Part shown: positions 2,907 through 38,615 of the stretch, piece by piece
How positions within the stretch are numbered: position 1 is the stretch's first letter
How the letters are laid out: each line of letters opens with the position of its first letter
From: Nitrospiraceae bacterium
GTDB taxonomy: Bacteria > Nitrospirota > Nitrospiria > Nitrospirales > Nitrospiraceae
Direction: 5' to 3'
DNA length: 38,615 bases
Assembly: GCA_046759485.1 (NCBI GenBank)
Contig: JBHICF010000001.1
Location: 1 to 38,615 of the forward strand
Program-made: the position numbers and the translations under genes
Notes under the pieces: model-generated
Told to the model about the DNA's origin: nothing
Databases searched by the model: none
What the model saw: the letters and a program-made list of their open reading frames with translations, nothing else

Positions 2907-2931
2907 GCCGGCCCCCGGAGGACCACGAACG

Positions 2932-3405
2932 ATGAGGACCTACGACCTCGACCAGCTCCGCGAGTTTGTCCGCGAGAGCGAGCGAATCGAGGGAATTCAC
3001 CGAGAGCCTCGACGGGCGCAGGTCCGGGCCCACGAGCACTTCCTGGGCCTAGGGGAACCAGACCTCCAGGACCTCTGCAACGTGGCACTGTCGCTCGAGC
3101 CTCGAGCCCGCCTTCGTGAACAGCCGGCTATGAACGTGCGGATCGCCAACCACAGACCTCCTTCCGGAGGGCCGGAGATTCCCTCGCACGCCGAATTCCT
3201 GGTTCGCCAGGTCGTTCTCAACCGCGGAACGCCCTACCGACTCCATATCGAGTATGAGACCCTCCACCCATTCATGGACGGCAACGGCCGCACGGGTCGC
3301 CTCCTGTGGGCGTGGCAGATGATTCACCACGACATTTCGCCGGGAATTGACCTCGGATTTCTCCACGCTTGGTACTACCAGGGCTTGGATTTTGGACGGG
3401 CCTAG
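2932..3405 (+). CDS. Small Fic-domain protein (157 aa), probable AMPylase/NMP-transferase
   Basis: Canonical Fic motif HPFMDGNGRTGR at 3265-3300. N-terminal SERIEG at 2977-2994 fits the (S/T)xxxE(G/N) inhibitory helix motif. Internal ATG chosen because the upstream ORF extension overlaps DUF5131 and is R/S/P-rich. Confidence 0.9.
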   Translation: MRTYDLDQLREFVRESERIEGIHREPRRAQVRAHEHFLGLGEPDLQDLCNVALSLEPRARLREQPAMNVRIANHRPPSGGPEIPSHAEFLVRQVVLNRGTPYRLHIEYETLHPFMDGNGRTGRLLWAWQMIHHDISPGIDLGFLHAWYYQGLDFGRA

Positions 3406-6176: not shown

Positions 6177-6547
6177 TACGCCTCCGTGTCGAAGCGCCCG
6201 CCAGGCGCTAGGTCGCTGCCGGCCAGGTGGTGCCTCGTACCTTGGCGTGCGCCGTGAGGTATGTGGTGCGACCCATCGACAAAGATCGCAGCCTCCTTCT
6301 CGCCAATCTGTCGAGCGTGATCTTCATAGAGAGGGTTTGCCATGTCTACATTCTCGTAAGGGGTACCCTCCCACGGATTCGCGACGTCCAGCACGACAGG
6401 CTTGCCGGCAACCCTCATGTGCGGAGCTGAAAATGCGCGCCTCATCGTTGCGCCGCACTGACAGCTCAAGCCCTGTGGCTGATCGGAAAAGGGAGCGATA
6501 TTCTCGCGCCGTTCTCGGCATTGCCGACATACAAAGAGCTGGATCAT
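6176..6547 (-). CDS. Zinc-ribbon protein (CxxC...CxC), 123 aa
   Basis: MIQLFVCRQCRE...LSCQCG. ATGA overlap with the upstream 1214-aa gene. Confidence 0.7.
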   Translation of the reverse strand: MIQLFVCRQCRERRENIAPFSDQPQGLSCQCGATMRRAFSAPHMRVAGKPVVLDVANPWEGTPYENVDMANPLYEDHARQIGEKEAAIFVDGSHHIPHGARQGTRHHLAGSDLAPGGRFDTEA

Positions 6548-9500
6548 TCGCTCTCCGATATGTCTGCAGAATCGACCCTAGCTTTCGCCCGCAGAAGGCT
6601 GCCAGTGAAATTATGCATGGCCGTTGCCGCAATCGTTGCCACCGCTTGGTCGATCAGGGCGATCTGTGAACGCTTCTCCGCGTCGTCCAGGTCTTCTGAG
6701 TCAAGCACTGTCTGCCGATCCTTGCGCAGCGCTGAGAGTCTTTGTGCAATCTTGCGAACTTCTGGCTCAATGAGCGCTTCGGGACGTGCGGACAAGACGC
6801 GTCGTTTCTGCTCGGCGGTCTCCGCTCGTCCAAGGGTGTTCTTGGCAATCGCCGCCTCCTCGCGCAAGTCGAATAGATCCGAGACTGGCTGTGAGCGAAA
6901 TCCATAAGCCCCTTCGATCTCTGCGACTCTTGAGGGGGAGGTGAAGAAAGACCGCTGAACCTCCTCGATGAACGGTACTTGCAGCTCGGGGCGCTGTGGG
7001 TCCGGAGTACGAAGAGGCGAGCCGAGCAAAATATCCCCAGTGCGCAGAGCGGCCTTTCCGATATTCGAGGTATAGCCCCGAATCAGGCTTTCAACCTGCA
7101 ACGGCGATGCCTGAAATGGCCGAGCAAGAATGCGAGCGGTTTCTGTCGTAGCGGGCGTGAATTGAAATTCTGGTAGCTCCTGTTTCAGGCGCTGAGGGAT
7201 GACCTGGGTCTCGTAGAAGGCATCGTATCCCGTCGTTAGCTCGATAGCCGGGTCTAGGATCGTCGGCGTGAAAGAGTCAACGAGACGACGTCCCATCCGG
7301 TGAGGTGTGCGACCCTTGGTGCGGAACATCGCGTCAATCGGAATAATCATGCCGAGCGGCACCTGGTCAACGAAGCTCTTCTTCCAGCGGTCAAAAGCAC
7401 GCTGGGCATCCTGGTCACCGGCCCCCGAGCGTGCTTGTAGATAGCGCGCGAAAGCTTCGATCGATGTGCCAAACGCGACATTCAGGGCGCCGATTGGGCG
7501 TGGAATCTTGAAGAAGCTCCCGTCCTCACGCTTGGCGACGTGGAAAAATAAAGACTTCTCCCATTCGGGCAGGGCCTGGTAGTCGGCATCGTCATGGTTC
7601 TTGAAGTAGTTGACCATTGACGGAATGGCGATGTACTGCAGCGCTCGACGAGTCGTTCGTACTGGGTGCGATTTCATATTTCGCGCGAACTTGTCAAGGT
7701 CCTGCAGCTCCGCGTTGATGAACGCTTCGACGGAATTCCACTTGCGCCCAAAGCTCCCGCCCCGTGAGAAATTGAGCGTAACCTCACTGGCGTCCTTAGC
7801 CGCCTGTGAGACCGTTGCGCCACGGATACGAGCACGACGAAACTCCGAGAAGCGAGGTATGGACTCAGACAACTCCGAGATGATCTGGAACGGGTACAGC
7901 GGGCTCTTCAAAGTACTGCGAAGAACCTTCGAGACTCGTCCACCCGCACGACGAGAGGCGGCGATTTCACCAAGCTTGTCTCCGATGTTGAAACGGTCAA
8001 GACCGACCTGCGTTGAGCCGAGTCCGCCGCCGCGAACGAATTCCCGCCAATGCCGCCCGCCGTCCTTCAGGAACTCCGAAGTGAACTGCGCCAACGGCGT
8101 GAGAATCGGTACAAAACCGTGCTTCGAGTTGACGGCGGCGGTGAACTGGTCCCGCAAAACGTTACGCAAGGCGAAGGACGGCACTCCCGTTGCGCCTGCG
8201 CGAAGCGTACGGGCCGCCGTTTGTCCGGTACGCATTAGGGGGCCGATGTGCTCGGGATCGACGGCCTGAAGTGCCCTGAGCATCTCTTCATTCGTGCTCC
8301 AAAGCTCTCGGACGGTGACTTCATTTCCCTCCTCATCAAGGCCACGGCGCATGACCGAGAATTCTCCAGGGCCGTCCTTGTGAATCGCCCGGAAAATCGA
8401 CATGTCATCGCCGGCACTCTCCGGATCATCTCCAAGCCTCGCCTTCTCTTCGGGCGTTAGCTCCGCAACCTTTCGTACCCGTCGCTCGACAAGGCGAATC
8501 GGGACCTCTCCCTCCGTCGGGCTCTGTAGCTCTCGAAGAAGCTGCGTACGGGCGTCTCCTTCTCCCATGCGCAAGGGGTCTCCACTTCCGATCTCGGCAA
8601 GCCGAGCCTCAACAAGCGACTTGCGCACCAGGTTCGTATCGATCGCCTGGGACGTTCGTACGGCCATTCGCGCCATGGCCTCCAGTGGCGGAACGATGGG
8701 ATTCTCAACATCCAGACCGCCCCCAATCTTGCGTGGCACAACGGCGTTTCCCCGGCTTCTCGCCGCTGTCTCCAGCTCACGCTCGAGGCGCTGAAACGTA
8801 ACGTAATGAGCGTTCTTCTGAAGGATGCGCTCAACGGCGGAGTTAGAAAGTATCTCCGCCGATTCCAGGGAACGGAGCATCAAGTGCGACCAGTCGCGGA
8901 CCTCTCGGGCGACGCGGTCCAGCTCGCCCATGCCCGCGCCGTACTTTGTTTCCATCTCAGCAAGGAACGGGGCGATCTCCCGGTCAAACTCCTCGGGTCC
9001 GATCGTGATTTTCAGATCGGCGTCGTCTCGTGAAAATTCCCGGCCGGCCGCTTGGTCTTCCAGTGCTCTTTCCTTGCGGCCCTTGATCTCAATTTCGCGG
9101 CGATAGGCCATGTATCGATCGAGGTCTTTGAGGAAGTTCTCCTCATCTGGCGCGGTGCGAAGGATCTCCTCGAGCGAGCGTGCCGACGATCCGTCCGGAA
9201 GTGTCGCGACGCGGAACTCCTGCGCGCTCCCGTTCCAGATCTCTGGCTTGACAAAAAGTGAGTTCGTCGCAACTCGCCGGCTTATCCGCTGGCGCTGTGT
9301 GAGCGCTTCAAGTTGTGCTCCGGCATCCCCGCCGACCGCGCGTGCCGCCTTCTCAAGAGGCATCTGCTCATCAAAAATCGCCTGGTAGAAGAGGCTTGCC
9401 CGATCCTTGATCCAATCCGTTGCCGGTTGTGATTCTCGATCCCGAATGTACGGCCCGTTGCCCTGCGCGACGGCGCGGACGGCCGCGCGATTTGCAAGAG

Positions 9501-10188
9501 ATGCACCACCAACACCCAGGAGCCCACCGAGCCCGGTCGGTACGAGAGCGGCCAAGATGCGCTCCTCTTCCGGTAAGGCGGCGGCATCGCCAAATCCCAC
9601 GATCGCACCCTCTCCGGCTCCTACCGCGAGACCTCGAGCAATATTTCGGCCCTTGGCGGTTGATCTATATAACCGTCCTGCATAGCGAGCCAAAGCCCCC
9701 CCGGGAAGCAGAGGGATTAGGTTCGAAGCACCGATAATAACGCCCGTCGCCGCCTTACGGCCGATCTCATCAAGCTCCGAGCGTTCCTCGCCCGTGTCTA
9801 GATCGATCTCGCTCGTAAATGCAGCCTTAGAGCGCAGCCACTGGTCGCGAATTTTCTTTCGCGTCCCCTTGTCTACGAAGCCGGCACGCTCGGCGAGCCC
9901 CACGAACGGGCCCACCGTGGCATCCATCAGAGCGTCCCGCGTTAGCTCGAAGGCATCGACATCACCGCCCACGTAGAGTGGCTCGCCAAGGTCATCAAGC
10001 GACTGCGGCTCCTTGCTTCTTGCCTCTGCTTCCCCAGCAAGTATCGCCGCGGAGAATTCCAGGAACTCCCTCTCCTCTTGGTCCTCTTGCAAGTGGCGCC
10101 GGGCGTCGAAGAGAAACCGCCGCTCCTCTTCGTCTTCATCACGTGGCGAGAAGGCGAAAGAAGCGGATGTCCCGAGAGGCTCGGTCAT
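6544..10188 (-). CDS. Giant internal virion / ejection protein candidate (1214 aa)
   Basis: Single long ORF. Its position matches T7 gp16-like proteins, after smaller core proteins and before the fibre. Gly-rich hydrophobic segments near the N-terminus. Confidence 0.85.
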   Translation of the reverse strand: MTEPLGTSASFAFSPRDEDEEERRFLFDARRHLQEDQEEREFLEFSAAILAGEAEARSKEPQSLDDLGEPLYVGGDVDAFELTRDALMDATVGPFVGLAERAGFVDKGTRKKIRDQWLRSKAAFTSEIDLDTGEERSELDEIGRKAATGVIIGASNLIPLLPGGALARYAGRLYRSTAKGRNIARGLAVGAGEGAIVGFGDAAALPEEERILAALVPTGLGGLLGVGGASLANRAAVRAVAQGNGPYIRDRESQPATDWIKDRASLFYQAIFDEQMPLEKAARAVGGDAGAQLEALTQRQRISRRVATNSLFVKPEIWNGSAQEFRVATLPDGSSARSLEEILRTAPDEENFLKDLDRYMAYRREIEIKGRKERALEDQAAGREFSRDDADLKITIGPEEFDREIAPFLAEMETKYGAGMGELDRVAREVRDWSHLMLRSLESAEILSNSAVERILQKNAHYVTFQRLERELETAARSRGNAVVPRKIGGGLDVENPIVPPLEAMARMAVRTSQAIDTNLVRKSLVEARLAEIGSGDPLRMGEGDARTQLLRELQSPTEGEVPIRLVERRVRKVAELTPEEKARLGDDPESAGDDMSIFRAIHKDGPGEFSVMRRGLDEEGNEVTVRELWSTNEEMLRALQAVDPEHIGPLMRTGQTAARTLRAGATGVPSFALRNVLRDQFTAAVNSKHGFVPILTPLAQFTSEFLKDGGRHWREFVRGGGLGSTQVGLDRFNIGDKLGEIAASRRAGGRVSKVLRSTLKSPLYPFQIISELSESIPRFSEFRRARIRGATVSQAAKDASEVTLNFSRGGSFGRKWNSVEAFINAELQDLDKFARNMKSHPVRTTRRALQYIAIPSMVNYFKNHDDADYQALPEWEKSLFFHVAKREDGSFFKIPRPIGALNVAFGTSIEAFARYLQARSGAGDQDAQRAFDRWKKSFVDQVPLGMIIPIDAMFRTKGRTPHRMGRRLVDSFTPTILDPAIELTTGYDAFYETQVIPQRLKQELPEFQFTPATTETARILARPFQASPLQVESLIRGYTSNIGKAALRTGDILLGSPLRTPDPQRPELQVPFIEEVQRSFFTSPSRVAEIEGAYGFRSQPVSDLFDLREEAAIAKNTLGRAETAEQKRRVLSARPEALIEPEVRKIAQRLSALRKDRQTVLDSEDLDDAEKRSQIALIDQAVATIAATAMHNFTGSLLRAKARVDSADISESE

Positions 10189-15807: not shown

Positions 15808-16563
15808 TCAGAACCTCTGTCGTACGTTACCTCGCCGACGCGTAACGCGTCCGTGCACGATCGAGCTCCGACCATGATCACGAAGACCGGCGGTGGGAGA
15901 ACGGAATTCATCGTCGAAGACCATCTGAGCGATATCTTCAAGGAAATTCGACATACGCTGCTGAAGTGTCCTATCGAGTACGGCTGGCCATTCCGCCTCG
16001 ATCTCTCCGCGGAGTCCAGCGGCGGCCTTGTACGCGATCAGGCGATGATGTGCTGCGGGCAAGAGTGGAACGTCAACGTCGGCCACCAGCGGTGACGGCT
16101 CGGCGAGGTAACGTACCAGTAATCCGTTCGTTGAGCCGACGGTCGGCGGCCCATAGATGCCGATCTGCTTTGTGCCGCCGACCTCGCGAAAGGTATACGC
16201 TCGCATTTCGGATAAGTCGTTACGCGCCCACCGTTCCGGTGCACCGTTCGTACCGACATCCGAAAATGGCTCCAACGATGGAGGGAGTGGGCTTAGTGTC
16301 AGATCGAGCGTGCTTGCGTGGGCGGACAGGATACGCGTGCTGAAATTCGCTGGCAGCGAATAGTAGGACTGGTCAGCGACGAGATCTTGCACGTCCTCGG
16401 CCTGGCCCCACCCCGTATTGATTTGCTTCGCCTCAAACCATAGCTCTTCATAGGAGGCGTTGACCCACTCGTCCACGATCGTAGCCTCGTGCAACTCGCC
16501 AGATGCGTCAGGGCTTTCACCGCCGAGACGCGATGCCAGCGTACGAAGAGCGGCGAGGTCCAC
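15808..16563 (-). CDS. Head-to-tail adaptor / tail tubular A-like protein (251 aa)
   Basis: GTG start 16563. Abuts the next gene with no gap. YYSLPANF-type adaptor-like motif. Confidence 0.75.
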   Translation of the reverse strand: MDLAALRTLASRLGGESPDASGELHEATIVDEWVNASYEELWFEAKQINTGWGQAEDVQDLVADQSYYSLPANFSTRILSAHASTLDLTLSPLPPSLEPFSDVGTNGAPERWARNDLSEMRAYTFREVGGTKQIGIYGPPTVGSTNGLLVRYLAEPSPLVADVDVPLLPAAHHRLIAYKAAAGLRGEIEAEWPAVLDRTLQQRMSNFLEDIAQMVFDDEFRSPTAGLRDHGRSSIVHGRVTRRRGNVRQRF

Positions 16564-18768: not shown

Positions 18769-19428
18769 ATGACGAAGAGCACCGCGGTGGCCGCCATGAT
18801 GTCCTTAATGCTGGCGCTGGCGTCCCATTCAGCACAGTCACAAACGACCGACGAACACGCGACGGAGGGGGCTGCACCCGAACGACTGCCACAGGTCTTA
18901 GTCGTCGACGTGGACGAAGGCATCCAATGTGCCGGGAAGCCTTCGCTCCGCATCTGGGGCAACATGCTGCGCGGCGGCAGGAAGCCACGCCTGAGCGTCG
19001 GCCATCACGAGAACGTACGGGTGTGCAAGGCACGGCGCGGCTGGCTATTAGCGGCTTGTCCCGAGAGCATCTGCGAACACGCCGGAAACTACCTGGTGCG
19101 GGTTGAGAAGGATCCTCGCAGACATTGGCCCGAGGGCTGGTGGTCCGAGGGCTGGCTGACGATTCACCCAGCAGAAACTCCTGAGCCTGGACCTCCTGGT
19201 GAGACGGGACCGCAGGGTCCACCCGGGGCGAGGGGACCTGCCGGACCTTCGGGACCGCAGGGTCCACCGGGACTTCCGGGGCCGCCCCTGTGCACTTCGA
19301 TCGAGATCGACGATGCTTGCACCTGGGACAACCCGTGCTTCTGGATCGGCCATATCGAGGACGGCCAGCTTCACTGTGAGCTAAGGCCAAAAGGTCATTC
19401 GGACGACAGTGACAGTGACAGTGACTGA
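18769..19428 (+). CDS. Secreted collagen-like protein. Signal peptide, Cys-containing N-domain, 11 G-X-Y triplets, Cys-rich C-domain, (DS)n tail.
   Basis: [24 protein letters not shown] signal-like N-terminus. [33 protein letters not shown] at 19189-19287. Confidence 0.85.
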
Positions 19429-19870
19429 AAGAAATTATGCGGAAGGGGTGCTGGGCAGGGTTGTGCCGGCGTTTTCAACGAGGTCGCGCGAGAGACTCTC
19501 GAGCTGCGATCCGCGACTTATCGAACTGTTCGAGCGAGTTGTACAGGGGTGGGACTGTACGATTCTAGAGGGCCACCGCGGCGAGGAAGCACAAAACGAG
19601 GCGGAGAGAACGGGCCGATCGACACTGCGCTGGCCAGAAGGCAAGCATAATAGAAGGCCGTCACGCGCGGTTGACGCCGCTCCGTACCCTATCGACTGGA
19701 GCGACATGGATCGCTGGCGAGCGTTCGGAGGATTCGTGCTCGGCGTCGCCGAGATGATGGATATCCCGATTCGATGGGGAGGTGACTGGGATGGAGATCG
19801 TACATTTCGCGATCAAAACTTTAATGATCTCTCCCACTTTGAGCTGAGCGAAGCGCGAAGTATCAGGTGA
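19409..19870 (+). CDS. Peptidase M15 (VanY / L-Ala-D-Glu peptidase-like) endolysin candidate
   Basis: EGHRG...SRAVDAAP...RWGGDW...DLSHFEL (H-D-H zinc ligand pattern). The exact start is uncertain (GTG 19409, 19415 or 19421). Confidence 0.8.
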
Positions 19871-21011
19871 CCCCGTTGGTGAAGCGGTGATGCGTCCTCT
19901 CCTGGACACGAAAGAACCCTACCTCGCCGCGGAACTCGTCCTTTCGCCCATCGCGGTCGTTAACCTGGATGTTCGTGACGAGCCGATTGTCGCGATTCCG
20001 CATGAAGCGGTATCCGACGTTCGCCGGATCGACCGCGTAGGCATGGCCTCTGTAGATCGCCCCGTCGAAAAGGTCGTGACTCATGATGCGCAATCGACCA
20101 TGCGGCGTAACGAGTCGCGTAATGTCCATGCCAAGCGTCTTGTCCTTCGGCATCAGCTCGAGCTGCGCGTGCGCGTCGGCTGAAATGTTGGCAACGATCC
20201 CCCGCGAAGCAAAAAAGAGCTTGTCCTTTGCCCCGTAACGGAATGTCTTCTCCGAGACCCCGTAGAACGAGATCATGTCAAACGTGCCGCCGAGATCCGT
20301 ATCGTTCGTTACGATGAACGGATCGAGGCCGCCCGTCGAGCGACGCGGCTCGTTGCCCGTCAGGTCCTCGAACGCCTGGCCCCAGAAGAACGAGGACTCG
20401 ATCCGCACAAGCTGATCGATTCCGCCCTTCTTCTGCTGCCACGGCAACTCCTTCGAGCCGTAGAGATCCGACTCCATCAGCGTGTTCGTCACCGCGAAGG
20501 GCCAGCGCTGAATCTGCGTAAAGTTGATCTGAACGGTCTTTTTCGTGGTGATCGACTCTTCGGATAGCGCGCCCTCCTCGGCGGCCCCGCCGAGACTCGA
20601 GATGGTGTCGCCATCGGACATCGCGGCGGCGGTGGTACCACCCCACCCGCGCTCGACCGTAAGGTCGTTGCCTACCTTTGAAACAATTCGACAGACCTCG
20701 TCCGTCTGCTGGTTGCGCCAGAGGACATTCGGGTGCCAATAGCCCCCGTTATCAACGGTGATGGTCGTCGTGACTCCATCCGCAACAGCGCCATCCAGCG
20801 TGTCGCGCTCGGGAACGCGCTCATCCTCGAGTGCCTTGAACTCGGGGTTAAACACGGACCGACGGTTGATCATTGCGCTCATCACCGTCAGCGGCGCCGC
20901 TGACGGCTCAAGCAAGAAGATATCGCGGTGCATGTCGATGACGCGCGACTCTTGCTGTACGCCGCGCGTTGCCGCCGTGGCCCGCTGGCCGGCGATAGTC
21001 GGAACGGTCAT
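19863..21011 (-). CDS. Major capsid protein candidate (382 aa)
   Basis: Follows the scaffold-like gene. AGGAGG lies 10 nt upstream of the ATG. Size fits an HK97-fold capsid protein. Confidence 0.8.
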   Translation of the reverse strand: MTVPTIAGQRATAATRGVQQESRVIDMHRDIFLLEPSAAPLTVMSAMINRRSVFNPEFKALEDERVPERDTLDGAVADGVTTTITVDNGGYWHPNVLWRNQQTDEVCRIVSKVGNDLTVERGWGGTTAAAMSDGDTISSLGGAAEEGALSEESITTKKTVQINFTQIQRWPFAVTNTLMESDLYGSKELPWQQKKGGIDQLVRIESSFFWGQAFEDLTGNEPRRSTGGLDPFIVTNDTDLGGTFDMISFYGVSEKTFRYGAKDKLFFASRGIVANISADAHAQLELMPKDKTLGMDITRLVTPHGRLRIMSHDLFDGAIYRGHAYAVDPANVGYRFMRNRDNRLVTNIQVNDRDGRKDEFRGEVGFFRVQERTHHRFTNGVT

Positions 21012-22461: not shown

Positions 22462-24327
22462 TCAGTTCACCCCACCAAGCTGGTCGCCAAGCTCCGCCGC
22501 GATGGCCTGCCCTTGCGTTTCGGTGCCACTCCCGGGTGTGGCCCCAATCGCTTGAGACTGCTCGGCTTGAGCCTGCGCGGCTAGCGACTGTCGCGCGGAG
22601 TCGCCAAGAATTAATGCCTCTGGATTAGGGGAGAGCTTCGTGCCGCGCGCGTAGTCGATAAACGTCGCCGACATCAATGGATGATCGAGCGGCAATCTGA
22701 GCTGCGCGAGGACGGCCAGGAAGCGCTCAGTTCGCTGAAGGCGCTGAGCGGCCGTTAGCGGCTCGTTACGTGCAAGGTCGATCGTTGCGTCCATATCCAT
22801 GCCCGATCCGGAGACCAGGTCATGGGGATCGACCTTGTGAAATGACTCTCCGGTAAAGGCATCTCCGGCTAGCCGAATGAAACGCTCTTCATCGATGAAG
22901 AGCTCATTAACCCGCATGAGCTGACGCGCTAAATCTCCTAAGAACTGCCAGCCCAGCACCTGAATCATCAATCCAGCCTTCGACCCGGACGCCTCCGCGA
23001 GAACGCTCGCTTCGGTCGCGGTACCACCTCCGGCCGCCAGACCAGAAAACGTATCAGTCGAGCCGGCCTTCTGTGCCCATCGGTCAATCTCCTGACTTTC
23101 CCGGTAGACCGAGAAATCGATCGGATCACGTCGCAACGGCGCGATCGAATTGTGATTGCGTACCCACACGACGCCATTCGGGCTATAGCGAAGATCGTGC
23201 GGATTCACACCCGAGTTCCGAATGACCGTATACATTTGATGAACGGCATACAGCAGGTTGTCCATCCTGGACTCGTGGAGCGTTTGTAGCTCGACCTGCA
23301 TCGAGTAGAGAACTTCGGCGGGCGAGATGCCGTAGATCGAATGAAGGGAAGGGATCGGAGTGAATTCAAGGATTGGCAGGTGCCCAAACGGATTACCGGC
23401 ATTGCGAATCGGCTTCAGCCTAGGATGCTCACGTACGACCGTCACGACACGGTCCCACGTCCACATCTCGAGCAGCGTAACCTCGCGCTTGGTCTGGTCC
23501 GCGGGCAAATTCGACATGCCGTCGAACGTATTGCGCGCGTGCTCCTCGACGGTCTCGGCATTCCCTTCGAACGGCTGTTTCGTATTGCTGTCCTTGACCA
23601 GCTCCTCAAGCTCGCCGAGATTCTTGTATAGCGGCTCACCTTCCAGGCGTGCCGCCTTGAGATCGTCCAGAGTGGCGCTCGTTTCGTGGACGACCCACTG
23701 GCATGGCTTCTCCCCAGTGAAAGAAAGGCTCTTTCCGTCCGGATCAGGGAAGACCTCATCGATATTCAGGACCTCGCACCAAGGATCGTTCCAGATCACC
23801 GAGTCCTCCCACGAAAATCGACTCCGTGTACCCAGGCCAACGTTGAGCCCAAACATGGAGAGACCGAGCCGTCGAGAGCTGCGCACAAGGCGGCGCTGCA
23901 CCGACTTACGGTGCGTCACCTTCATAAACCCCGTACCGTAAATCTCCGCCGATTTGATCATCAGTAGCAGCTTCATCTGCAGCTTCAGCGCCTGCCAGTC
24001 GTATTCGAGAAGGTAGCGATGATGGTTCGCGCGACGTGAATCCCTCTCGCCACCACGGCCCCAGGTTTCGATGACGGGCGTGTTCGCAACCCGAGCAAGG
24101 AAATCCTCCACGGTCGTGAAGATCAGAGGGATCCCGAGGCTCGAAGTTAGAGAGTCCTCGGGGACTTCCATGGCTGTTCTGTAACCGTCGTAGAGGTCTT
24201 TCCATTTATCGCGGTTTTGATCGACCAGCTCGCGCCGTGAGCGCTCGTAGCGATGGAGCACGGACGAAACGGCATCGTCCGCAGCAAGCTCCTTGCCCGG
24301 AACAACGTACAGGCTTGGATTCGGCAC
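22462..24327 (-). CDS. Portal (head-tail connector) protein, 621 aa
   Basis: Immediately downstream of TerL. Size and N-terminal pattern (RYERSR...W..LY.GY) are podovirus-connector-like. Confidence 0.8.
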   Translation of the reverse strand: MPNPSLYVVPGKELAADDAVSSVLHRYERSRRELVDQNRDKWKDLYDGYRTAMEVPEDSLTSSLGIPLIFTTVEDFLARVANTPVIETWGRGGERDSRRANHHRYLLEYDWQALKLQMKLLLMIKSAEIYGTGFMKVTHRKSVQRRLVRSSRRLGLSMFGLNVGLGTRSRFSWEDSVIWNDPWCEVLNIDEVFPDPDGKSLSFTGEKPCQWVVHETSATLDDLKAARLEGEPLYKNLGELEELVKDSNTKQPFEGNAETVEEHARNTFDGMSNLPADQTKREVTLLEMWTWDRVVTVVREHPRLKPIRNAGNPFGHLPILEFTPIPSLHSIYGISPAEVLYSMQVELQTLHESRMDNLLYAVHQMYTVIRNSGVNPHDLRYSPNGVVWVRNHNSIAPLRRDPIDFSVYRESQEIDRWAQKAGSTDTFSGLAAGGGTATEASVLAEASGSKAGLMIQVLGWQFLGDLARQLMRVNELFIDEERFIRLAGDAFTGESFHKVDPHDLVSGSGMDMDATIDLARNEPLTAAQRLQRTERFLAVLAQLRLPLDHPLMSATFIDYARGTKLSPNPEALILGDSARQSLAAQAQAEQSQAIGATPGSGTETQGQAIAAELGDQLGGVN

Positions 24328-24341
24328 GCCCGAAGCTTACC

Positions 24342-25907
24342 TTAATGCGCTCGTCGGCCCATGACGACGCCACCCATGCGACGGTGCGCTGCCGTTCCTT
24401 GACGCCGCATCGCACGCGCTCGGGCATTCTGCATGCCGTAGCGCGTAATATCGTCGTCACGCATCGGGCTCGGCTCGTGAACGGAGTCGACGTGGCAGGG
24501 GTTCATCATGATCAGGTAACGCAGGGCGTCGCAGAGGTCGTCATCCTTCTTGAACGGCCTCTCAGGGGCGACCTGGTCCTTGTAGCGAGTCCGTGCCCAC
24601 TGGTACGAAGAGAGGGCCGAGATCAGCCGTGGGCAATTTCTGGAGATGAACAACTTCGGACGTTCGGTATTTGGACGCAGCGTGGCTCGAAGATAGCTTG
24701 ATACCGACGCGATGCCCGGCAGGACATCCGTATTCGCCAAGTTCGTGAAGACGCCATTCTCAGCATAGAGGTCTTGAATTGTTCGCTCGTCGCCTGGGTC
24801 GGAGTCGTTGCGTACCCGGCGCCTCGAGTCGTGCGAGATCGCCGTATCGGCGATTCGGTCCTGCCCCGAGAGGCGTCGAATCGACTTCGCGTGATCGTCG
24901 TGCACGGTCGAAGGTGCTCCGTGATACTCGCGATATACCCAAAGGTCGTTCTTGCGATTGGCACGTGCCCATAAGCACGCGGTTGGGTGCCGAAACCCGA
25001 TATCGATGGCCGAATAGGTCGTGCCGGTCGGAACAGGATGACTCGCAGGATTAAAGACATGTCCGCCGACGTGCGGCTCGTTCCAGTCGACGTAATCGGG
25101 GGAGAAATCTGGCCAGATCAGGCCCTCGAACTCCTCGAAGCTCGCCTCGTACTCGCGCCGAAAGATGTCCTCGGGAATCTCAGTCTTCTTCGATCGTAGC
25201 CAGTCCCGGTCGACGTAGGGATTCTCTTCCGTACGGCAACGGATACCGGCCCACCCCTTGCCCTTCGTCTCCTCTTCGAGGCGACGGTCAAAGTAGCGCT
25301 TGAACCAGCCACCCCCTCGGGGGGTCGAGATAAACAAGACGCGCCCATGACGGTCAATCGTGCACGGTTCGAGGTATTCCGTCCAAATGTCCTCGGCCAA
25401 GAATGCGCACTCATCAACGACAATAAGGTCAAGCTGCTCTCCCTTAAGTGAGGTTGGGGACTCGGCCGACTTACCGACGATGATGGCGCCGTCACACGTA
25501 CGGATGAAGCGGTTGTCCCGGGTCCAATTGGACTTCTCGATCGATCCGGGTCCGAGCACCTCCTCGATAACCAGCGCCTGCCAGACGATTTGCCATACAC
25601 GATCCGTGGTTTCATACTGAGGTCCAACGATCCATGTACGAGTTTTTGGAAATGATGCCGTATAGATGACCTCCCCGGCTGCGGCAATGGTCTTGCCGCA
25701 GCGCCGGCCCCACGGTGCGGCAAAGTAAATCCACTCCGGGCCGAAATGAAGCGCCGTCTGTCCCGGATGACGATTGACCCCGGCGAGGTAGGGGCGTACG
25801 TCGCCCGGGCGTATCTCCACCTTCCAGTTCGTGAAGATAAACGCCTTCCACTCACGGAGCTGCTCGGGCGTGCCGTAATAAGAAAGGTGCTCCGAGTGAC
25901 CCCTCAT
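24342..25907 (-). CDS. terL: Terminase large subunit
   Basis: Walker A-like GRRCGKT and Walker B-like LIVVDECAF. 521 aa, directly upstream of the portal gene. Confidence 0.9.
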   Translation of the reverse strand: MRGHSEHLSYYGTPEQLREWKAFIFTNWKVEIRPGDVRPYLAGVNRHPGQTALHFGPEWIYFAAPWGRRCGKTIAAAGEVIYTASFPKTRTWIVGPQYETTDRVWQIVWQALVIEEVLGPGSIEKSNWTRDNRFIRTCDGAIIVGKSAESPTSLKGEQLDLIVVDECAFLAEDIWTEYLEPCTIDRHGRVLFISTPRGGGWFKRYFDRRLEEETKGKGWAGIRCRTEENPYVDRDWLRSKKTEIPEDIFRREYEASFEEFEGLIWPDFSPDYVDWNEPHVGGHVFNPASHPVPTGTTYSAIDIGFRHPTACLWARANRKNDLWVYREYHGAPSTVHDDHAKSIRRLSGQDRIADTAISHDSRRRVRNDSDPGDERTIQDLYAENGVFTNLANTDVLPGIASVSSYLRATLRPNTERPKLFISRNCPRLISALSSYQWARTRYKDQVAPERPFKKDDDLCDALRYLIMMNPCHVDSVHEPSPMRDDDITRYGMQNARARAMRRQGTAAHRRMGGVVMGRRAH

Positions 25908-29456: not shown

Positions 29457-30107
29457 CTATTGAATCGCCCATCCGATAACGCCCTCTATCCCCCCGTCAC
29501 TCGAGAATCGCACTCGGTAGCCTACTCGGTCGGCCCTTGGTATGTGCATTCGCAAATCTACAACGGTAGCTTCGGCAATTGCCCCGAACGGACCGTCTCG
29601 CGCGCCCGCATAATGAAGTACCGTCGTCTGTATGGCCGACCGGTCCGCCCACCGTAATCCGAGGAGTAGACTTTTGCCCTGCCGGCTCCAGCCGGGCATT
29701 GTGAAGCCGCCCGGGTGCGTTCCCGCACCCGTTTCGTAGCGACTAACGCGCATTCCGAGCAGGCCGCGCAGTCTTTCTCGGCCGATGACAATCGATGCTT
29801 CTGAATGCCCTCGGCGCGTGTTGCCGTGGAATCTCCACTGACGCCACCGCTTATCGCCTCGCAAGTAGAGGTTGACCCAACCCTCGACACCGATCCATGA
29901 AGTTGCCTCACAGAGGCCCATGACATGAATGCCGTACGCGCTTCTAAATGTATCCCCCGTACGAGCGACGAGCCCGAGGACCCCGGAGCACCTCGCTTCG
30001 GAGGCCGAAGCCCAGAGGAAGAGCGCAAGGGCGCACCCCCGGCTAAGGTCCCGCCTTGACCTGTGGGCCACCGGTCGTCCCGCTTGATCCCCCACGCGGT
30101 ACGTCAC
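29457..30107 (-). CDS. Possible secreted protein (signal-like RRDLSRGCALALFLWASASEA), 216 aa
   Basis: ORF track only. GTG start with a weak RBS. Overlaps the 3' end of the 61-aa ORF. Confidence 0.35.
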   Translation of the reverse strand: MTYRVGDQAGRPVAHRSRRDLSRGCALALFLWASASEARCSGVLGLVARTGDTFRSAYGIHVMGLCEATSWIGVEGWVNLYLRGDKRWRQWRFHGNTRRGHSEASIVIGRERLRGLLGMRVSRYETGAGTHPGGFTMPGWSRQGKSLLLGLRWADRSAIQTTVLHYAGARDGPFGAIAEATVVDLRMHIPRADRVGYRVRFSSDGGIEGVIGWAIQ

Positions 30108-30228
30108 TTTCGTCTGGCCACGGGTGCGCTTCGCTCCGTTTGTCGACCTCGCGCAACGACTTGATGCCTCGCGTAAGTGACTCTACCTCCCTGATGAGCA
30201 GGTCGTAGATCAGGTCACGGTCCGACAT
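30043..30228 (-). CDS. Hypothetical 61-aa protein, first gene of the minus-strand block
   Basis: ATG 30228 has AAGGAGG 5 nt upstream. Confidence 0.5.
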   Translation of the reverse strand: MSDRDLIYDLLIREVESLTRGIKSLREVDKRSEAHPWPDESDVPRGGSSGTTGGPQVKAGP

Positions 30229-30333
30229 CGGCACCTCCTTCTTCTTATTGCGCTTGTCCTCGGACGGATTGCGGAGCCAGCGCCCCTTGTTCCATCCCAA
30301 TGTGTACTCTTCGCTCGTCGTGGTCCGTACGGT

Positions 30334-30350
30334 ACACGTGATCCACGTGT
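30334..30350. promoter_or_regulatory. 7-3-7 palindrome ACACGTG-ATC-CACGTGT next to a minus-strand TTGACA (30353-30348)
   Basis: Read directly. Lies between the tRNA-like gene and the first late ORF. Confidence 0.3.
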
Positions 30351-30424
30351 CAACGCAAGTGCGCACAAGAAGAGGTAGTGGCGTCGTGTTACTGTTCGCT
30401 CGTGGCCACGGGTCCCTGGATGGG

Positions 30425-30533
30425 AGACCACGACGAGATTCGAACTCGCGTCACCAGTGGAAGCCTAAACAACGTCCCTTGGTGAAGACTCCCCTTGCAG
30501 GGGGGGCACCTTAGACCACTCGGTCACGCCGCC
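30425..30533 (-). tRNA. Aberrant class-II tRNA-like gene (~109 nt), Ser(GCU)-like layout. The anticodon loop is one nt short and the variable region is ~40 nt.
   Basis: Minus-strand read: GGCGGCG-TG-ACC-GAGTGGTCTAA-GGT-G-CCCCC(C)CTGCAAGGGG(AG)...GCGAG-TTCGAAT-CTCGT-CGTGGTC-T. D and T arms are canonical. The acceptor pairs 6/7, with 2 G-U pairs and 1 G-G mismatch. Confidence 0.45.
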
Positions 30534-30561
30534 TTCAGGGATTTACCCAAAAAGTCCCGAC

Positions 30562-30609
30562 TAGACCCTCTCGCCGCAGCTTTAGCGGGTTGAAGCGCGA
30601 GAGGGTCTA
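30562..30609. repeat. Perfect 13-bp stem hairpin (TAGACCCTCTCGC / GCGAGAGGGTCTA), 22-nt loop
   Basis: Arms at 30562-30574 and 30597-30609. Confidence 0.9.
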
Positions 30610-30631
30610 ACCCTAATGGGTTGTTTGTCGC

Positions 30632-30657
30632 CTCTGCCTACGCCGGGCTAGGCAGAG
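30632..30657. repeat. Perfect 9-bp stem hairpin (CTCTGCCTA / TAGGCAGAG), 8-nt loop
   Basis: Arms at 30632-30640 and 30649-30657. Confidence 0.9.
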
Positions 30658-30783
30658 ACTCGAATGCTCTCATCGGCATCCTCCTCATCCACGTCGTGAT
30701 TGGCCCACACGTAGCGGGCCGGAGACGCCACTACCCAAAGAAGATGTCCCCTACGACACCGACCGTGCTAGGATATGGACTAC

Positions 30784-30809
30784 GACCGTCCGTAAGAGTC
30801 CGGACGGTC
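30784..30809. repeat. Perfect 9-bp stem hairpin (GACCGTCCG / CGGACGGTC), 8-nt loop
   Basis: Arms at 30784-30792 and 30801-30809. Confidence 0.9.
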
Positions 30810-30812
30810 TTG

Positions 30813-30865
30813 GGGGCGACCAGGGCCGTTGCCGGGCAGGTACGGACTCTCGCCCTGGTCGCCCC
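30813..30865. repeat. Perfect 14-bp stem hairpin (GGGGCGACCAGGGC / GCCCTGGTCGCCCC), 25-nt loop
   Basis: Arms at 30813-30826 and 30852-30865. Confidence 0.9.
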
Positions 30866-30931
30866 ACTTCGAGGTGGGCCTCACACAAGTTGCATAGCCC
30901 CGGGACTTACGTCTAAAATAGCAAGAGATAT

Positions 30932-30972
30932 GCGATGTGAGGGAGAGCCTAAGGACAGCCGGCTCACATCGC
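30932..30972. repeat. Perfect 10-bp stem hairpin (GCGATGTGAG / CTCACATCGC), 21-nt loop
   Basis: Arms at 30932-30941 and 30963-30972. Confidence 0.9.
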
Positions 30973-31122
30973 CCATACATCGTCCACCGGCGGGGCTGCC
31001 CACAAGACGAACGTGCTCACGCACGATGGACCTACTGCTAGTGCTCTGACGGGTCCGGGCTCTTCAAAGGAACAGGGCTAGCGAACGACGGCCGGCGACC
31101 GACGGGCAACCTCAGTCGCACC

Positions 31123-31193
31123 GAGCTGGTTCGAGCTGCAGTCCACTTCGTCGCATCGGCGGGGGCTGGGACTGCTGCGCCTCGAACCAGCTC
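31123..31193. repeat. Compound hairpin: 13-bp outer stem (GAGCTGGTTCGAG / CTCGAACCAGCTC) plus 7-bp inner stem (GCAGTCC / GGACTGC)
   Basis: Outer arms at 31123-31135 and 31181-31193. Inner arms at 31138-31144 and 31169-31175. Confidence 0.9.
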
Positions 31194-31209
31194 CCTCTAA
31201 GCAAAGCTC

Positions 31210-31562
31210 TGTACATATGTACATGTACTCGTACACTCGTACATGTACACACCACATGTAGGGGGGAGATGGGTGTATGTACTGTACGACGTACGGCGTA
31301 CGGGCACGGGTCCCTCGTGCGGGGGGTGGGGGGGGTGTACGTGCGTGTTCATGTACACGAACACTCGTACGTGCGCTCGTGTGTACATGAACACGCACGT
31401 ACACGAGCATGGGTGGCGTACATGGACCTACTCGTCGTACACGTTCTCGTCCGTCGTTCGCGTCCGTTGTACAGTCCGAGCACCGTCAGCTCGAGCTGTA
31501 CGATCGCACGAGACGGGACGTGTACGTGGGGGGGTCATACGAGAGTGAAATGCACGCCGTAC
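31210..31562. repeat. GTAC-saturated iteron-like array (TGTACA, ATGTACAT, CGTACG palindromes), including two tandem 30-bp units and G6/G6TG8/G7 runs
   Basis: About 21 GTAC by hand count in ~350 bp. Units 31335-31364 and 31365-31394 match at 21/30 positions (GTACGTGCG...TGTACAYGAACAC). Confidence 0.9.
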
Positions 31563-31627
31563 ACACGAGGGGGCGCTCACGGGCGTTGTCGACCGAGAGC
31601 GACCTGGTGAAAAACCTCAGAAATGTA

Positions 31628-31657
31628 TTGACAGTGTGTTGTCAGGTGTGGTAGAAC
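31628..31657 (+). promoter_or_regulatory. Candidate early promoter: TTGACA (31628-31633), TG-extended weak -10 TAGAAC (31652-31657), overlapped by TGACA-N7-TGTCA inverted repeat
   Basis: Read directly. About 45 nt upstream of the first early ATG (31702). The -10 is poor. Confidence 0.3.
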
Positions 31658-31701
31658 TGCGGCTGCCCTATTAACCATACACGGGAGAACAGCACACACC
31701 A

Positions 31702-32346
31702 ATGACACTACACAGCAACTTGACGGTCCAGACCGAACAGCCAGACACCGAGTCGGAAACGCCGCTCTATCACCGATACGCGGGCGACGCCTACCCGCAG
31801 AACGCGTACCTGACCCTCGATCTCGAAACCGGCATGCTCAGCGCCGAGTGCTGGACGAACCCGGGCGGTGGGCGGTCGATGCGCGCACACCGCGGCGTGC
31901 AGCAACTACAGTTCCCGGTCAACGCCGCGATCCGCCGTGACGCCCTGGCCTCTGTCCTGGAGAGGACCCAACCGTACGCGCAGACCATTCTCGACCATAG
32001 CGTCGTCGAGTGGCAGAACGACAACCTGACAGGGCGCGTTAGCGAGCGGAGCGACGATGCTCGGCTCGCAATCGAGGAGATCTGCGAGAATCTCGAGCCA
32101 TCCGAGGTCGGCAACATGTGGCAGGCCGGTGACTGGATCACGGCCGGCGGCCAACAGCAGGCCGAGGACTACCTGCCCTCCATCGTGACAGCGACCGATC
32201 GCGAAATCGCCACCCTCGCGGCCATGACCTGCGAGGAGGCCCTCCGTGGCGACGATGTCGTGATCGAGGGTGGCGCAGCGGCTCTGGCCAACTACCTGCG
32301 CCAGAGGCGGGACGAAATTTCCATCGGTGAGGCACAATCGATCTGA
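31702..32346 (+). CDS. Acidic, lysine-free early protein (214 aa)
   Basis: First ORF of the + strand operon. 34 D/E versus 15 R and 0 K by hand count. Confidence 0.75.
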   Translation: MTLHSNLTVQTEQPDTESETPLYHRYAGDAYPQNAYLTLDLETGMLSAECWTNPGGGRSMRAHRGVQQLQFPVNAAIRRDALASVLERTQPYAQTILDHSVVEWQNDNLTGRVSERSDDARLAIEEICENLEPSEVGNMWQAGDWITAGGQQQAEDYLPSIVTATDREIATLAAMTCEEALRGDDVVIEGGAAALANYLRQRRDEISIGEAQSI

Positions 32347-32569: not shown

Positions 32570-33190
32570 ATGAGCCAGAAGCACGTTGATCGACTCCTGA
32601 GATCCGTGCCCGAATGGAACTCCTGGCGCCAGGAGAATCCCAGGGTCATACCGGACCTCACCAATGCAAACCTCGCCGGAGCAAACCTCACCAATGCAAA
32701 CCTCGCCGGAGCAAACATCGCCGATGCAAACATCGCCGATGCAACCCTCGCCAGAGCGGACCTCGCCGGAGCAACCCTCGCCAGAGCGTACCTCGCCGGA
32801 GCGTACCTCGCCAGAGCGGACCTCGCCAGAGCAAACCTCACCGATGCAAACCTCGCCGGAGCAAACCTCGCCGGAGCGGACCTCGCCAGAGCGGACCTCG
32901 CCGGAGCGAACCTCACCAGAGCGTACCTCGCCGATGTCCGGGGAATCATCGCCGCGCCCATAGCCGACCCCCGCGGACACACAGCGTTTTTCTGGAAGAA
33001 GCGCCAAGGGTCGTGGTGGGTCAACTCTGGATGTCGCTCCACGACCATCGCCCAGGCACGGAAACACTGGGGTGAGTACTACCTTTCTAGGGCCACCGCG
33101 GATATGACTAGCCGGGAAATCGGCGACCAATACCTCCGAGCGTTCGACTGGCTGGAGAAGCTACTGGCGGCGAGGGCCCTGAACGACTGA
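32570..33190 (+). CDS. Pentapeptide-repeat protein paralog 1 (206 aa): N-cap, ~19 A(D/N)LxG-type units, conserved C-terminal domain
   Basis: [24 protein letters not shown], then ANLAG/ADLAR units at about 32654-32935, then DPRGHTAFFW..WWVNSGCRS..ARKHWG. Confidence 0.9.
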   Translation: MSQKHVDRLLRSVPEWNSWRQENPRVIPDLTNANLAGANLTNANLAGANIADANIADATLARADLAGATLARAYLAGAYLARADLARANLTDANLAGANLAGADLARADLAGANLTRAYLADVRGIIAAPIADPRGHTAFFWKKRQGSWWVNSGCRSTTIAQARKHWGEYYLSRATADMTSREIGDQYLRAFDWLEKLLAARALND

Positions 33191-37593: not shown

Positions 37594-38357
37594 GCCAGGA
37601 GCACGTTGATCGACTCCTGAGATCCGTGCCCGGATGGAACTCCTGGCGACAGGAGAACCCGAATGTTGTGCCAGACCTCGCCGGCGCCGACCTCAGGTAT
37701 GCCGACCTCAGGGACGCCAACCTCAGGGACGCCAACCTCAGGCACGCCAAACTCATCAGCGCCAACCTCAGGCACGCCAACCTCACCGGCGCCGACCTCA
37801 AGTATGCCAACCTCAGATATGCCAACCTCAGATACGCCAACCTCACCGGCGCCTGCCTCGCCGCCACCAACCTCAGATACGCCAATCTCAGGCACGCCAA
37901 ACTCATCAGCGCCAACCTCAGGCACGCCCGTTTCAACTCATCCAACCTCACCGGCGCCAAACTCAGATACGCCGATCTCAGGTATGCCGACCTCAGGCGC
38001 GCCTGCCTCACCGCCGCCAACATCAGGGACGCCGATCTCAGGGATGCCGACCTCAGGGACGCCGAACTCTGGGGCGCCGAACTTACCGGCGTCACGGGGA
38101 TTCTCGACGCTCGCGTAGATGATCCCCGTGGGTATCGAGCGTTTTTCTGGCAGCAGCGAGGGGGCGAGTGGTGGATCAACTCCGGATGCCGTTCCATGAC
38201 TGTGGAGAAGGCACGAGAACACTGGGGGGGCGAATGTTACGTGTCGTCGACACCGTTGCCCGGTGACTGTACCGACAGGGAGATCGCAGATCGGTACCTG
38301 GAGGCCTTGGTTTGGCTGGAGGAGCTAACGAATGAGATGCAGGAGGCGCAGGCATGA
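37590..38357 (+). CDS. Pentapeptide-repeat protein paralog 2 (255 aa, ~27 units) with the same N-cap and C-terminal domain as paralog 1
   Basis: [34 protein letters not shown] units at about 37674-38087, then [25 protein letters not shown]. Confidence 0.9.
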
Positions 38358-38615
38358 ACCAAGAGCACGTTGATCGACTCCTGAGATCCGTGCCCGGATG
38401 GAACTCCTGGCGACAGGAGAACCCGAATGTTGTGCCAGACCTCGCCGGCGCCGAACTCAGGCGCGCCAACCTCACCGACGCCAACCTCACCGGCGCCGAC
38501 CTCAGGGGCGCCAACCTCACCGACGCCAACCTCACCGACGCCGACCTCACCGGCGCCGAACTCAGGGGCGCCAACCTCACCGACGCCAACCTCACCGACG
38601 CCGACCTCACCGGCG
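38354..38615 (+). CDS. Pentapeptide-repeat protein paralog 3, 3'-truncated by the window end
   Basis: ATGA overlap with paralog 2. Hand translation: [60 protein letters not shown]... Open to base 38615. Confidence 0.85.

Follow-up and report, generated by a model that had tools for sequence, protein, structure and literature searches.

A tRNA-like gene with an oversized variable arm at the head of the virion genes of a SU10-like podophage

The 38.6-kb stretch of DNA analyzed here (38,615 nucleotides (nt) of contig JBHICF010000001.1, assigned to a Nitrospiraceae bacterium; hereafter the window) belongs to a SU10-like podophage, with a terminase large subunit and with SU10 portal, major capsid and adaptor domains. 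Its minus strand carries a gene that resembles a transfer RNA (tRNA) with an oversized variable (V) arm, which is the subject of this analysis. This gene comes first in the leftward unit of virion genes, about 200 nt upstream of the first ribosome-binding site, and lies within approximately 1.5 kb without convincing genes. On the plus strand lie early genes, among them those for a D12 methyltransferase, a DUF5131 protein, a Fic/DOC protein and pentapeptide-repeat proteins. Among the open reading frames (ORFs) of the window that were scanned against Pfam and PHROGs, there was no integrase or recombinase, nor any aminoacyl-tRNA synthetase or tRNA-processing enzyme. The window sequence is present in just one hydrothermal-vent metagenome run. 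A separate Logan assembly of that single run contains an identical contig at depth 11, including the run of seven cytosines in the tRNA-like gene (the C7 run), by which the assembly is confirmed. The closest relatives of the terminase are metagenomic proteins (40-53% identity).

Read on the minus strand, the gene is composed of GGCGGCG UG ACC GAGUGGUCUAA GGU G CCCCCCC UGCAA GGGGAG UCU UCACCA AGGGACGUUGUUUAGGCUUCCAC UGGUGA C GCGAG UUCGAAU CUCGU CGUGGUC U, then CCCA (Table 1). The D arm, the T arm, the acceptor stem with 6/7 positions paired and the hairpin CCCCCC-CUGCAA-GGGGAG are all present, as had been described in an earlier, sequence-only reading of this DNA. The acceptor pairs are, in order, G-C, G.U, C-G, G.G, G.U, C-G and G-C. 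The invariant positions are all intact (U8, A14, G15, G18, G19, A21, C48, G53, U54, U55, C56, A58 and C61). A 21-mer that reaches from U8 through G26 (GTGACCGAGTGGTCTAAGGTG, 30507-30527) occurs identically in four GTDB genomes and always lies within a tRNA-Ser gene (4/4). As in real tRNA-Ser, a single C48 is placed between the variable stem and the T stem, which keeps the G15-C48 pair. The 3' end can be read in two ways, either as U73 followed by CC or as an 8-base-pair (bp) stem with C73 and an encoded CCA. The A at 30534 could give the eighth acceptor pair (A-U), and ARAGORN, when given the gene with a trimmed V arm, draws the 8-bp acceptor stem with C + CCA after it. Because the discriminator is C in the 8-bp register, this register and U73 rule each other out.

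The gene is recognized by the Rfam tRNA model (RF00005) in sensitive mode, which matches 30425-30533(-) over model positions 1-71 with 31.8 bits (gathering threshold 29) and with a 37-nt insertion in the variable region. Searched on a 401-nt stretch, the match has an E-value of 6.5e-5; with the whole window and all 4227 families, the E-value is 0.0063. No other tRNA-like match occurs in the window. With its default filters, Rfam misses the gene. ARAGORN finds no tRNA in the window at default settings, and in relaxed mode (90-70% thresholds, introns allowed) it yields nothing or nonsense folds. It had been considered that a relaxed tRNA finder or Infernal might expose a canonical fold that the sequence-only reading had misparsed. 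The standard tRNA finders return no such fold, with none from ARAGORN and an Rfam match that barely passes with its 37-nt insertion, and the earlier description was borne out in that the tRNA-like gene is carried by a phage, has a class II shape and possesses an oversized variable region. A transfer-messenger RNA was tried as a candidate and rejected (nothing in the corresponding ARAGORN mode at 70% thresholds; no match in Rfam). For comparison, genuine tRNA-Ser genes with the same D arm reach 56-59 bits with RF00005. The deficits of the phage gene are found in the 37-nt insertion, in the G4.G69 and the two G.U pairs of the acceptor, in a C.A mismatch of the anticodon stem and in an irregular loop. 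When the acceptor, D and T stems are enforced, the cloverleaf lies 4.2 kcal/mol above the minimum free energy fold (2.6-9.4 kcal/mol in five genuine tRNA-Ser controls). Chance resemblance is excluded by the Rfam E-value together with the identity of the 21-mer. At the level of sequence, the analysis establishes 30425-30533 as a real, full-length, tRNA-derived phage gene that is lineage-specific and no remnant of an attachment (att) site.

Table 1. Positions of the tRNA-like gene, its parts and the other features of the window
Feature	Position	Strand	Remarks
Full tRNA-like gene, acceptor 5' G to discriminator U	30425-30533	minus	RF00005 match, exact coordinates
Acceptor 5' strand, GGCGGCG	30527-30533	minus	pairs with 30426-30432
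D arm, ACC-GAGUGGUCUAA-GGU	30508-30524	minus	G13.A22, A14, G15, G18, G19, A21 present
Anticodon arm, CCCCCCC-UGCAA-GGGGAG	30489-30506	minus	candidate anticodons GCA (30496-30498) and UGC (30497-30499)
Oversized variable arm	30450-30488	minus	basal stem UCACCA (30480-30485) with UGGUGA (30451-30456), about 23 nt inside, then C48
T arm, GCGAG-UUCGAAU-CUCGU	30433-30449	minus	canonical G53, U54, U55, C56, R57, A58, C61
Acceptor 3' strand CGUGGUC, discriminator U (30425), then CCCA	30421-30432	minus	
I12, GACCACGACGAG	30314-30325	minus	perfect 12-nt complement of tRNA positions 61-72 (30426-30437), 100 nt downstream
I13, 12-bp perfect helix	30724-30735 (5' arm) with 30374-30385 (3' arm)	minus	pairing probability about 1.0
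I8, 13-bp perfect hairpin	30562-30609	minus	just 5' of the tRNA-like gene, then CUUUUU; pairing probability about 1.0
First downstream gene, 61 aa, start MSDRDL...	30043-30228	minus	strong AAGGAGG ribosome-binding site; no family match
Large terminase	24342-25907	minus	
SU10-type portal	22462-24327		
SU10 major capsid protein	19863-21011		
SU10 adaptor	15808-16563		

The variable region counts 40 nt in the Infernal alignment (G + 37 inserted nt + AC), versus 16-21 nt in the tRNA-Ser controls. Its basal stem is perfect over 6 bp, and it is this stem that accounts for the stability of the 39-nt hairpin (z = -2.58; 3/200 shuffles fold equally well). The interior alone (the inner 24 nt) has a z-score of -0.66. 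Judged from its sequence, the arm resembles a normal variable stem of class II whose loop has gained about 20 nt. The arm was also trimmed in silico, either by keeping the 6-bp stem with a loop of 4-9 nt or by substituting a 5-nt class I loop. Each of these versions is called as tRNA-Cys(GCA) by ARAGORN at default thresholds, with scores of 103-107; the program flags pseudogenes below 100, and the reference scores are 112 for a real phage tRNA-Cys and 121-125 for cellular tRNA-Ser. In the same test, a variable region of 25 nt was still called and those of 29 and 39 nt failed. The length of the V arm is therefore the sole cause of the failure of ARAGORN. No further copy of the insert exists in the window, and none in the IMG/VR viral contigs or in 185,579 species genomes; complements of the V-arm loop elsewhere in the window occur at chance level only.

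The anticodon arm can be folded in four registers, whose energies, computed with the D stem set off by one position, fall within about 4 kcal/mol. The loop CCUGCAA (7 nt, C33, anticodon UGC) leaves four G-C pairs plus C27.A43 and is picked by Infernal and MAFFT (-25.2 kcal/mol). The loop CUGCAA (6 nt), which was the choice of the sequence-only reading, tops a 6-bp stem that is broken by C.A (-25.1 kcal/mol). ARAGORN picks the loop CUGCAAG (7 nt, U33 and A37, anticodon GCA; -21.1 kcal/mol), and the 5-nt loop UGCAA, with C32-G38 paired, is picked by no program (-24.7 kcal/mol). If the arm is anchored on G26.U44 like that of a genuine tRNA-Ser, it counts 20 nt and not 19, and the loop is formally one of 8 nt (CCUGCAAG). 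The 6-nt loop is not forced, because the seven-C run permits several registers. Of the proposed shortened anticodon loop it can thus be retained that the 6-nt register is possible; it is not required, and a 7-nt loop is placed by Infernal/MAFFT and by ARAGORN. The sequence of the 6-bp anticodon stem is likewise there, but it contains the C.A mismatch that had been passed over. The best explanation from the sequence is that the 6-nt loop is a register artefact of the C7 run and no designed feature. Compared with typical loops of bacterial tRNA-Cys, the GCA register would differ at position 38 only (G, usually A).

With respect to amino-acid identity, the gene combines features of two tRNA families. 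It shares with bacterial class II tRNA-Ser the 21-nt D-arm identity, a 3-bp D stem with G13.A22 and C11-G24, the long V arm with a single C48 before the T stem, and the 7/5 arrangement of acceptor and T stems. The bacterial Ser identity set consists of G73, C72, G2-C71, R4-Y69, C11-G24, a large variable region and G30-C40 (PMC9976931). Of these, the phage gene has C72, C11-G24 and the large variable region only. The other determinants (4/7) are absent: the phage gene has U73 and not G, G2.U71 and G4.G69 take the place of G2-C71 and R4-Y69, and C30-G40 is found instead of G30-C40. It also has no serine anticodon (NGA or GCU), the loop being UGCAA, without the U that is needed for GCU. For bacterial Cys, the determinants are U73 and the anticodon GCA (major), along with G2-C71 and C3-G70 (PMC9976931). 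U73 and C3-G70 are present in the 7-bp register, GCA only in the register of ARAGORN, and G2-C71 is replaced by G.U. The GGC... acceptor and the loop C-U-GCA-A-N are further likenesses to tRNA-Cys(GCA), and a phage tRNA-Cys (L003) has a D-loop 14-mer in common with the phage gene. Ordinary tRNA-Cys, however, is a class I tRNA with a variable loop of 4-5 nt, in contrast to the 40 nt here, and the phage gene further deviates by G38, by G2.U71 and in its anticodon stem, which has the C.A mismatch and one nucleotide in excess. Taken as a set, U73, C3-G70 and GCA appear to suit Cys more than Ser. The loss of one loop base from a tRNA-Ser(GCU), whose anticodon arm had been noted earlier as similar, is a possible origin, but the bacterial Ser identity marks are mostly absent and Cys marks are present. 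A tRNA-Sec was considered and rejected: there is no UCA, the D stem has 3 bp and not 6, and only the optional 8/5 reading fits.

The search for relatives covered several collections. Blastn with 1.4 kb and with the element itself against 50,697 GenBank phage records gave only short T-arm matches to unrelated tRNAs. Exact-pattern scans of viral, metagenome and genome contigs (with the D arm; the D loop, a long gap and the T loop; a V-arm 20-mer; the anticodon arm; the T arm with the acceptor) gave ordinary tRNAs or unrelated oddities only. Among the contigs of the same sample there were no variants, no similar contig and no host tRNA look-alike. By sequence, the tRNA-like gene is an orphan in all collections searched. 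These scans also turned up four unrelated metagenomic tRNA-like sequences (L010-L013) with this same D loop, in which the D arm and the T loop are 50-80 nt apart. The intervening segment contains tandem repeats in two of them; the other two are identical and resemble an intron-containing tRNA, and ARAGORN calls none of the four.

The gene is surrounded by inverted repeats. In the 1.6 kb from 30150 to 31750 there are six perfect inverted repeats of at least 12 bp with their arms within 400 nt; shuffled sequences contain a mean of 0.044 such repeats and never more than one in 500 shuffles, and no region of the window is denser. This divergent intergenic control region might function as an origin, as a cluster of operators or as a structured leader. 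One of the repeats (I12) is directed at the T-stem 3' strand and the acceptor 3' strand of the gene. Its pairing is predicted with a probability of 0.97 in a transcript of 30540-30300 and is predicted to be unformed in longer ones. The I13 helix is predicted to enclose two hairpins and the tRNA-like gene in a domain of 362 nt. The 446-nt region 30300-30745 folds with z = -4.07 on the minus strand and z = -3.82 on the plus strand, and because both strands fold nearly alike, the repeats could act as DNA and not as RNA. A leader segment (I20, CUACCUCUUCUU, 30367-30378) shows 83% complementarity to the first late gene's ribosome-binding region (AAGAAGAAGGAG, 30235-30246), a match that might possibly serve as anti-Shine-Dalgarno pairing. 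An upstream 'anti-T-arm' duplex is marginal over the genome-wide background (47/1420), and neither a sigma-70 promoter nor a canonical terminator was identified adjoining the gene. The heptamers CACGACG/CGTCGTG have 4 of the window's 16 copies within 383 nt (30316-30698); one of these lies inside the tRNA 3' strand and another abuts an I13 arm.

The nearest described natural molecules are the selC* tRNA-Cys and the allo-tRNAs. A natural tRNA-Cys with a long V arm does exist, namely selC* (PMC5389517, PMC7609411), which has U73, GCA and lengthened acceptor and anticodon stems (Mukai et al. 2017, PMC5389517). Among the allo-tRNA-like sequences there are degenerate, non-translational ones as well as some from phages (PMC5389517). 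The phage gene has the long variable arm and the non-serine anticodon in common with these families. They are, however, defined by an 8/4 or 9/3 arrangement of acceptor and T stems, whereas the phage gene is 7/5, or 8/5 with the extra A-U. By inspection, an 8/4 split needs a U.U pair and leaves G49 unpaired, the T stem has 5 bp, and 9/3 misfits too. Allo-tRNAs also have a long D stem with a tetraloop, in contrast to the canonical D arm of the phage gene; the alternative D stem GACC-GAGU-GGUC has only 4 bp. No selB* or cysS* domains were found in the window. At 40 nt, the V arm has about double the length found in the genuine tRNA-Ser controls (16-21 nt), which are the reference for this comparison of lengths. 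Two further systems show a partial likeness. Engineered, aptamer-tagged tRNAs with hairpins grafted on the tip of the V arm stay translationally active (PMC7590224) and resemble the phage gene in having an extra segment at that tip of a tRNA body. The phage segment, however, is natural, poorly structured and without a known protein partner, whereas the tagged tRNAs are synthetic. The tRNA-Other of Bacillus cereus (PMC3399842) is likewise a tRNA-shaped gene with features against ordinary decoding; there is no sequence relationship between the two.

We tentatively read the gene as an acquired and remodelled tRNA that would still be processed to a tRNA-shaped RNA and would act, at best, as a weak tRNA-Cys(GCA) (probability roughly 0.4). 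One phage lineage would have acquired a tRNA gene and later remodelled it. The result would join a class-II (tRNA-Ser-type) D arm and a long V arm with tRNA-Cys-type marks, i.e. the GGC... acceptor with C3-G70, U73 and the loop C-U-GCA-A-G. About 20 nt would have been added at the tip of the V arm and one nucleotide at the top of the anticodon stem. Leftward transcription would take place together with the leader of the virion-gene operon. The intact elbow and acceptor/T stack may permit cleavage by RNase P and 3' trimming with CCA repair, by which a tRNA-shaped RNA would be freed. If charged, this RNA could decode at best as a low-efficiency tRNA-Cys(GCA), with its V-arm extension directed into the solvent, where the engineered tRNAs bear their added hairpins. 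In favor of this reading are the end-to-end Rfam match above the gathering threshold, the intact invariant bases and D arm, the cloverleaf energy within the range of the tRNA-Ser controls, the tRNA-Cys(GCA) calls after trimming, the Cys determinants in place of most Ser ones, and the precedents of the grafted hairpins and of selC*.

A number of observations weigh against this reading. The acceptor stem contains one G.G mismatch (G4.G69) and two G.U pairs, of which the one at 2-71 hits the Cys determinant G2-C71, and in all the longer transcripts that were modelled the acceptor stem is outcompeted by flanking complements. The CUGCAAG register, on which the Cys identity depends for its GCA, comes with a C.A mismatch and, in addition, with a 2-nt spacer or else a sixth pair that is mismatched. 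Pairing of C32 with G38 could moreover bring the loop down to 5 nt, and Infernal and MAFFT favour UGC with C33 and not GCA. The gene scores about 25 bits poorer than genuine tRNA-Ser. Nine related SU10-like phage loci, found via the terminase (L004-L009, L018-L021), contain no tRNA by ARAGORN, or by Rfam at E <= 5. Cys codons make up 15/5346 (0.28%) of the sampled late codons and 34/2058 (1.65%) of the sampled early codons; as they are rare, codon demand offers no rationale for a Cys tRNA. Finally, about two stem mismatches and 0-1 invariant-base defects are equally compatible with some 5% of neutral decay, so that mild decay and function are inseparable by the substitution pattern.

The first alternative, which we consider quite possible, if somewhat less probable, is a pseudo-tRNA relic, i.e. 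an acquired gene that lost decoding, is drifting, and survives through its location in, or overlap with, a non-coding control region. The low covariance-model score and the failure of ARAGORN are in line with such a relic, as are the three non-Watson-Crick acceptor pairs, the C.A of the anticodon stem, the ambiguous loop and the unstructured V-arm interior (z = -0.66). The lineage appears independent of a tRNA, given that none was found in any relative. No tRNA-related enzyme was found in the window, the Cys codon demand is low, and the gene sits within the 1.5 kb without convincing genes. Against a relic, however, every invariant tertiary base is kept, both the D and the T arm are intact and so is the 6-bp V stem, and the core passes the default thresholds of ARAGORN after V-arm shortening. 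U73 and GCA in a U33...A37 loop form a coherent identity set, and two indels versus about three substitutions would be an odd spectrum for neutral drift. The surroundings are not junk either, with six perfect inverted repeats of at least 12 bp where 0.044 are expected.

A second alternative, which seems unlikely, is a non-decoding tRNA mimic that acts in cis in the leader of the virion operon, either as RNase P/Z processing 'punctuation' or as a conformational switch whose 3' strand would alternate between the cloverleaf and the flanking complements. The position of the gene would suit this role, as it is the first feature of the leftward unit and precedes the first ribosome-binding site by about 200 nt. 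So would the I12 complement, which matches exactly positions 61-72 and lies 100 nt downstream, the I13 helix that closes the 362-nt domain (pairing probability about 1), the fold of 30300-30745 (z = -4.07), the 4/16 heptamer copies within 383 nt around the gene and the anti-Shine-Dalgarno complement of the leader (I20). A kept elbow with drifted anticodon and variable arms would also be expected if only recognition of the RNase P type counts. However, the z-score of the other strand is nearly equal (-3.82), so that the repeats might work at the level of DNA (operators, origin). The upstream pairing is marginal against the genome-wide background, and I12 forms in just one modelled transcript length. 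RNase P depends on the acceptor stem, yet none of the helices is weaker; neither a promoter nor a terminator was identified, and no homologue lends comparative support.

More speculative, and rather improbable in our view, is a reading in which the RNA would be a new natural type of tRNA, with a functional phage tRNA-Cys(GCA)-like molecule on a class-II body that would use its 40-nt V arm as a handle that recruits a phage or host protein, or that hides the RNA from a tRNA-cleaving defence. Such an RNA might be released from, or toggled in, the structured leader of 360 nt, in which flanking segments would pair with its 3' strand. A trans-acting decoy, or a nuclease-resistant substitute, against a tRNA-cleaving defence of the host, as raised by the sequence-only reading, is very unlikely. 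According to published proposals or demonstrations, phage tRNAs counteract anticodon nucleases, retron effectors and PARIS (PMC10264068, PMC11555353, PMC12409363), and these precedents speak for the idea. So would the G at position 38 in the GCA register, a flanking change of the sort that these papers describe. The published escapes from anticodon nucleases, however, are base substitutions inside 7-nt loops without changes in length (PMC10264068), in otherwise canonical tRNAs that mostly occur in tRNA clusters. The phage element is a single orphan sequence, and nothing links it to any defence system.

Many temperate phages integrate into tRNA genes, and archaeal tRNAs can contain short introns outside the anticodon loop. 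The att core or duplicated 3' half of a host tRNA, an archaeal tRNA with a bulge-helix-bulge intron and a chance resemblance are nonetheless the most improbable of the alternatives. The att-site reading, which had been raised earlier for a 3' half duplicated from a host tRNA, is refuted within the limits of what can be tested: the gene is full-length and retains its 5' half together with the D arm, the scanned ORFs include no integrase, the V arm has no match in the viral collections or in the 185,579 species genomes, and the same sample holds no similar contig. For the intron, a bulge-helix-bulge scan at the borders of the insert gave three weak candidates with flanking helices of 2-3 bp and no sensible exon junction, none of them credible, and the gene content is bacterial-phage-like. 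Chance is ruled out by the E-value and the 21-mer as described above.

If the RNA of the remodelled-tRNA reading is made and charged, it would be a natural tRNA with a V arm about twice that of the class II tRNAs examined. To our knowledge, no longer natural V arm has been described. It would also represent a second natural route, besides selC* and carried by a phage, to a long-armed cysteine tRNA, and it would show how large an extra load of RNA on a tRNA the translation machinery tolerates, as a natural counterpart of the engineered aptamer-tagged ones. If the gene is a relic, it exemplifies the ordinary gain and decay of tRNAs in phages. In either case, ARAGORN is unable to report a tRNA once its variable region is much longer than about 25 nt, and the default filters of Rfam missed the gene as well. 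Such genes are consequently under-called in a systematic manner in the annotation of metagenomic phages.

Several minor observations were made along the way. In the intergenic region, a 24-bp perfect hairpin at 31335-31404 was the source of spurious microRNA matches, and a 14-bp inverted-repeat pair lies at 30813-30865. GTAC-rich repeats of the type TGTACATGTAC occur at 31210-31430 in direct and inverted copies and are iteron-like. Between the tRNA-like gene and the first late gene (30334-30353), a TTGACA is followed by the palindrome ACACGTGGATCACGTGT; this combination is operator- or promoter-like, and no match to a -10 element was found. Two related SU10-like phages contain type II hammerhead ribozymes among their early genes (L009 6103-6169 (-) and L020 829-892 (-); 51.7 and 47.3 bits, gathering threshold 37), and none was found in the window. 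Elsewhere in the window, a protein with a Fic/DOC motif is encoded amid the early genes at 2563-3405 (+), and a protein of 1214 aa with an LPD38 domain (large polyvalent protein-associated) at 6544-10188 (-). An ORF with collagen-like Gly-X-Y repeats at 18769-19428 (+) has a weak match to Pfam Collagen (25.6 bits versus a cutoff of 27.2); it lies on the strand opposite to the neighboring virion genes and overlaps a minus-strand ORF. The left end (1-264) holds 24-nt tandem repeats, and long repeats with a period of 15 nt encode pentapeptide-repeat proteins at 32617-32976, 37616-38125 and 38380-38604. The contig ends within repeats, where the assembly probably broke.

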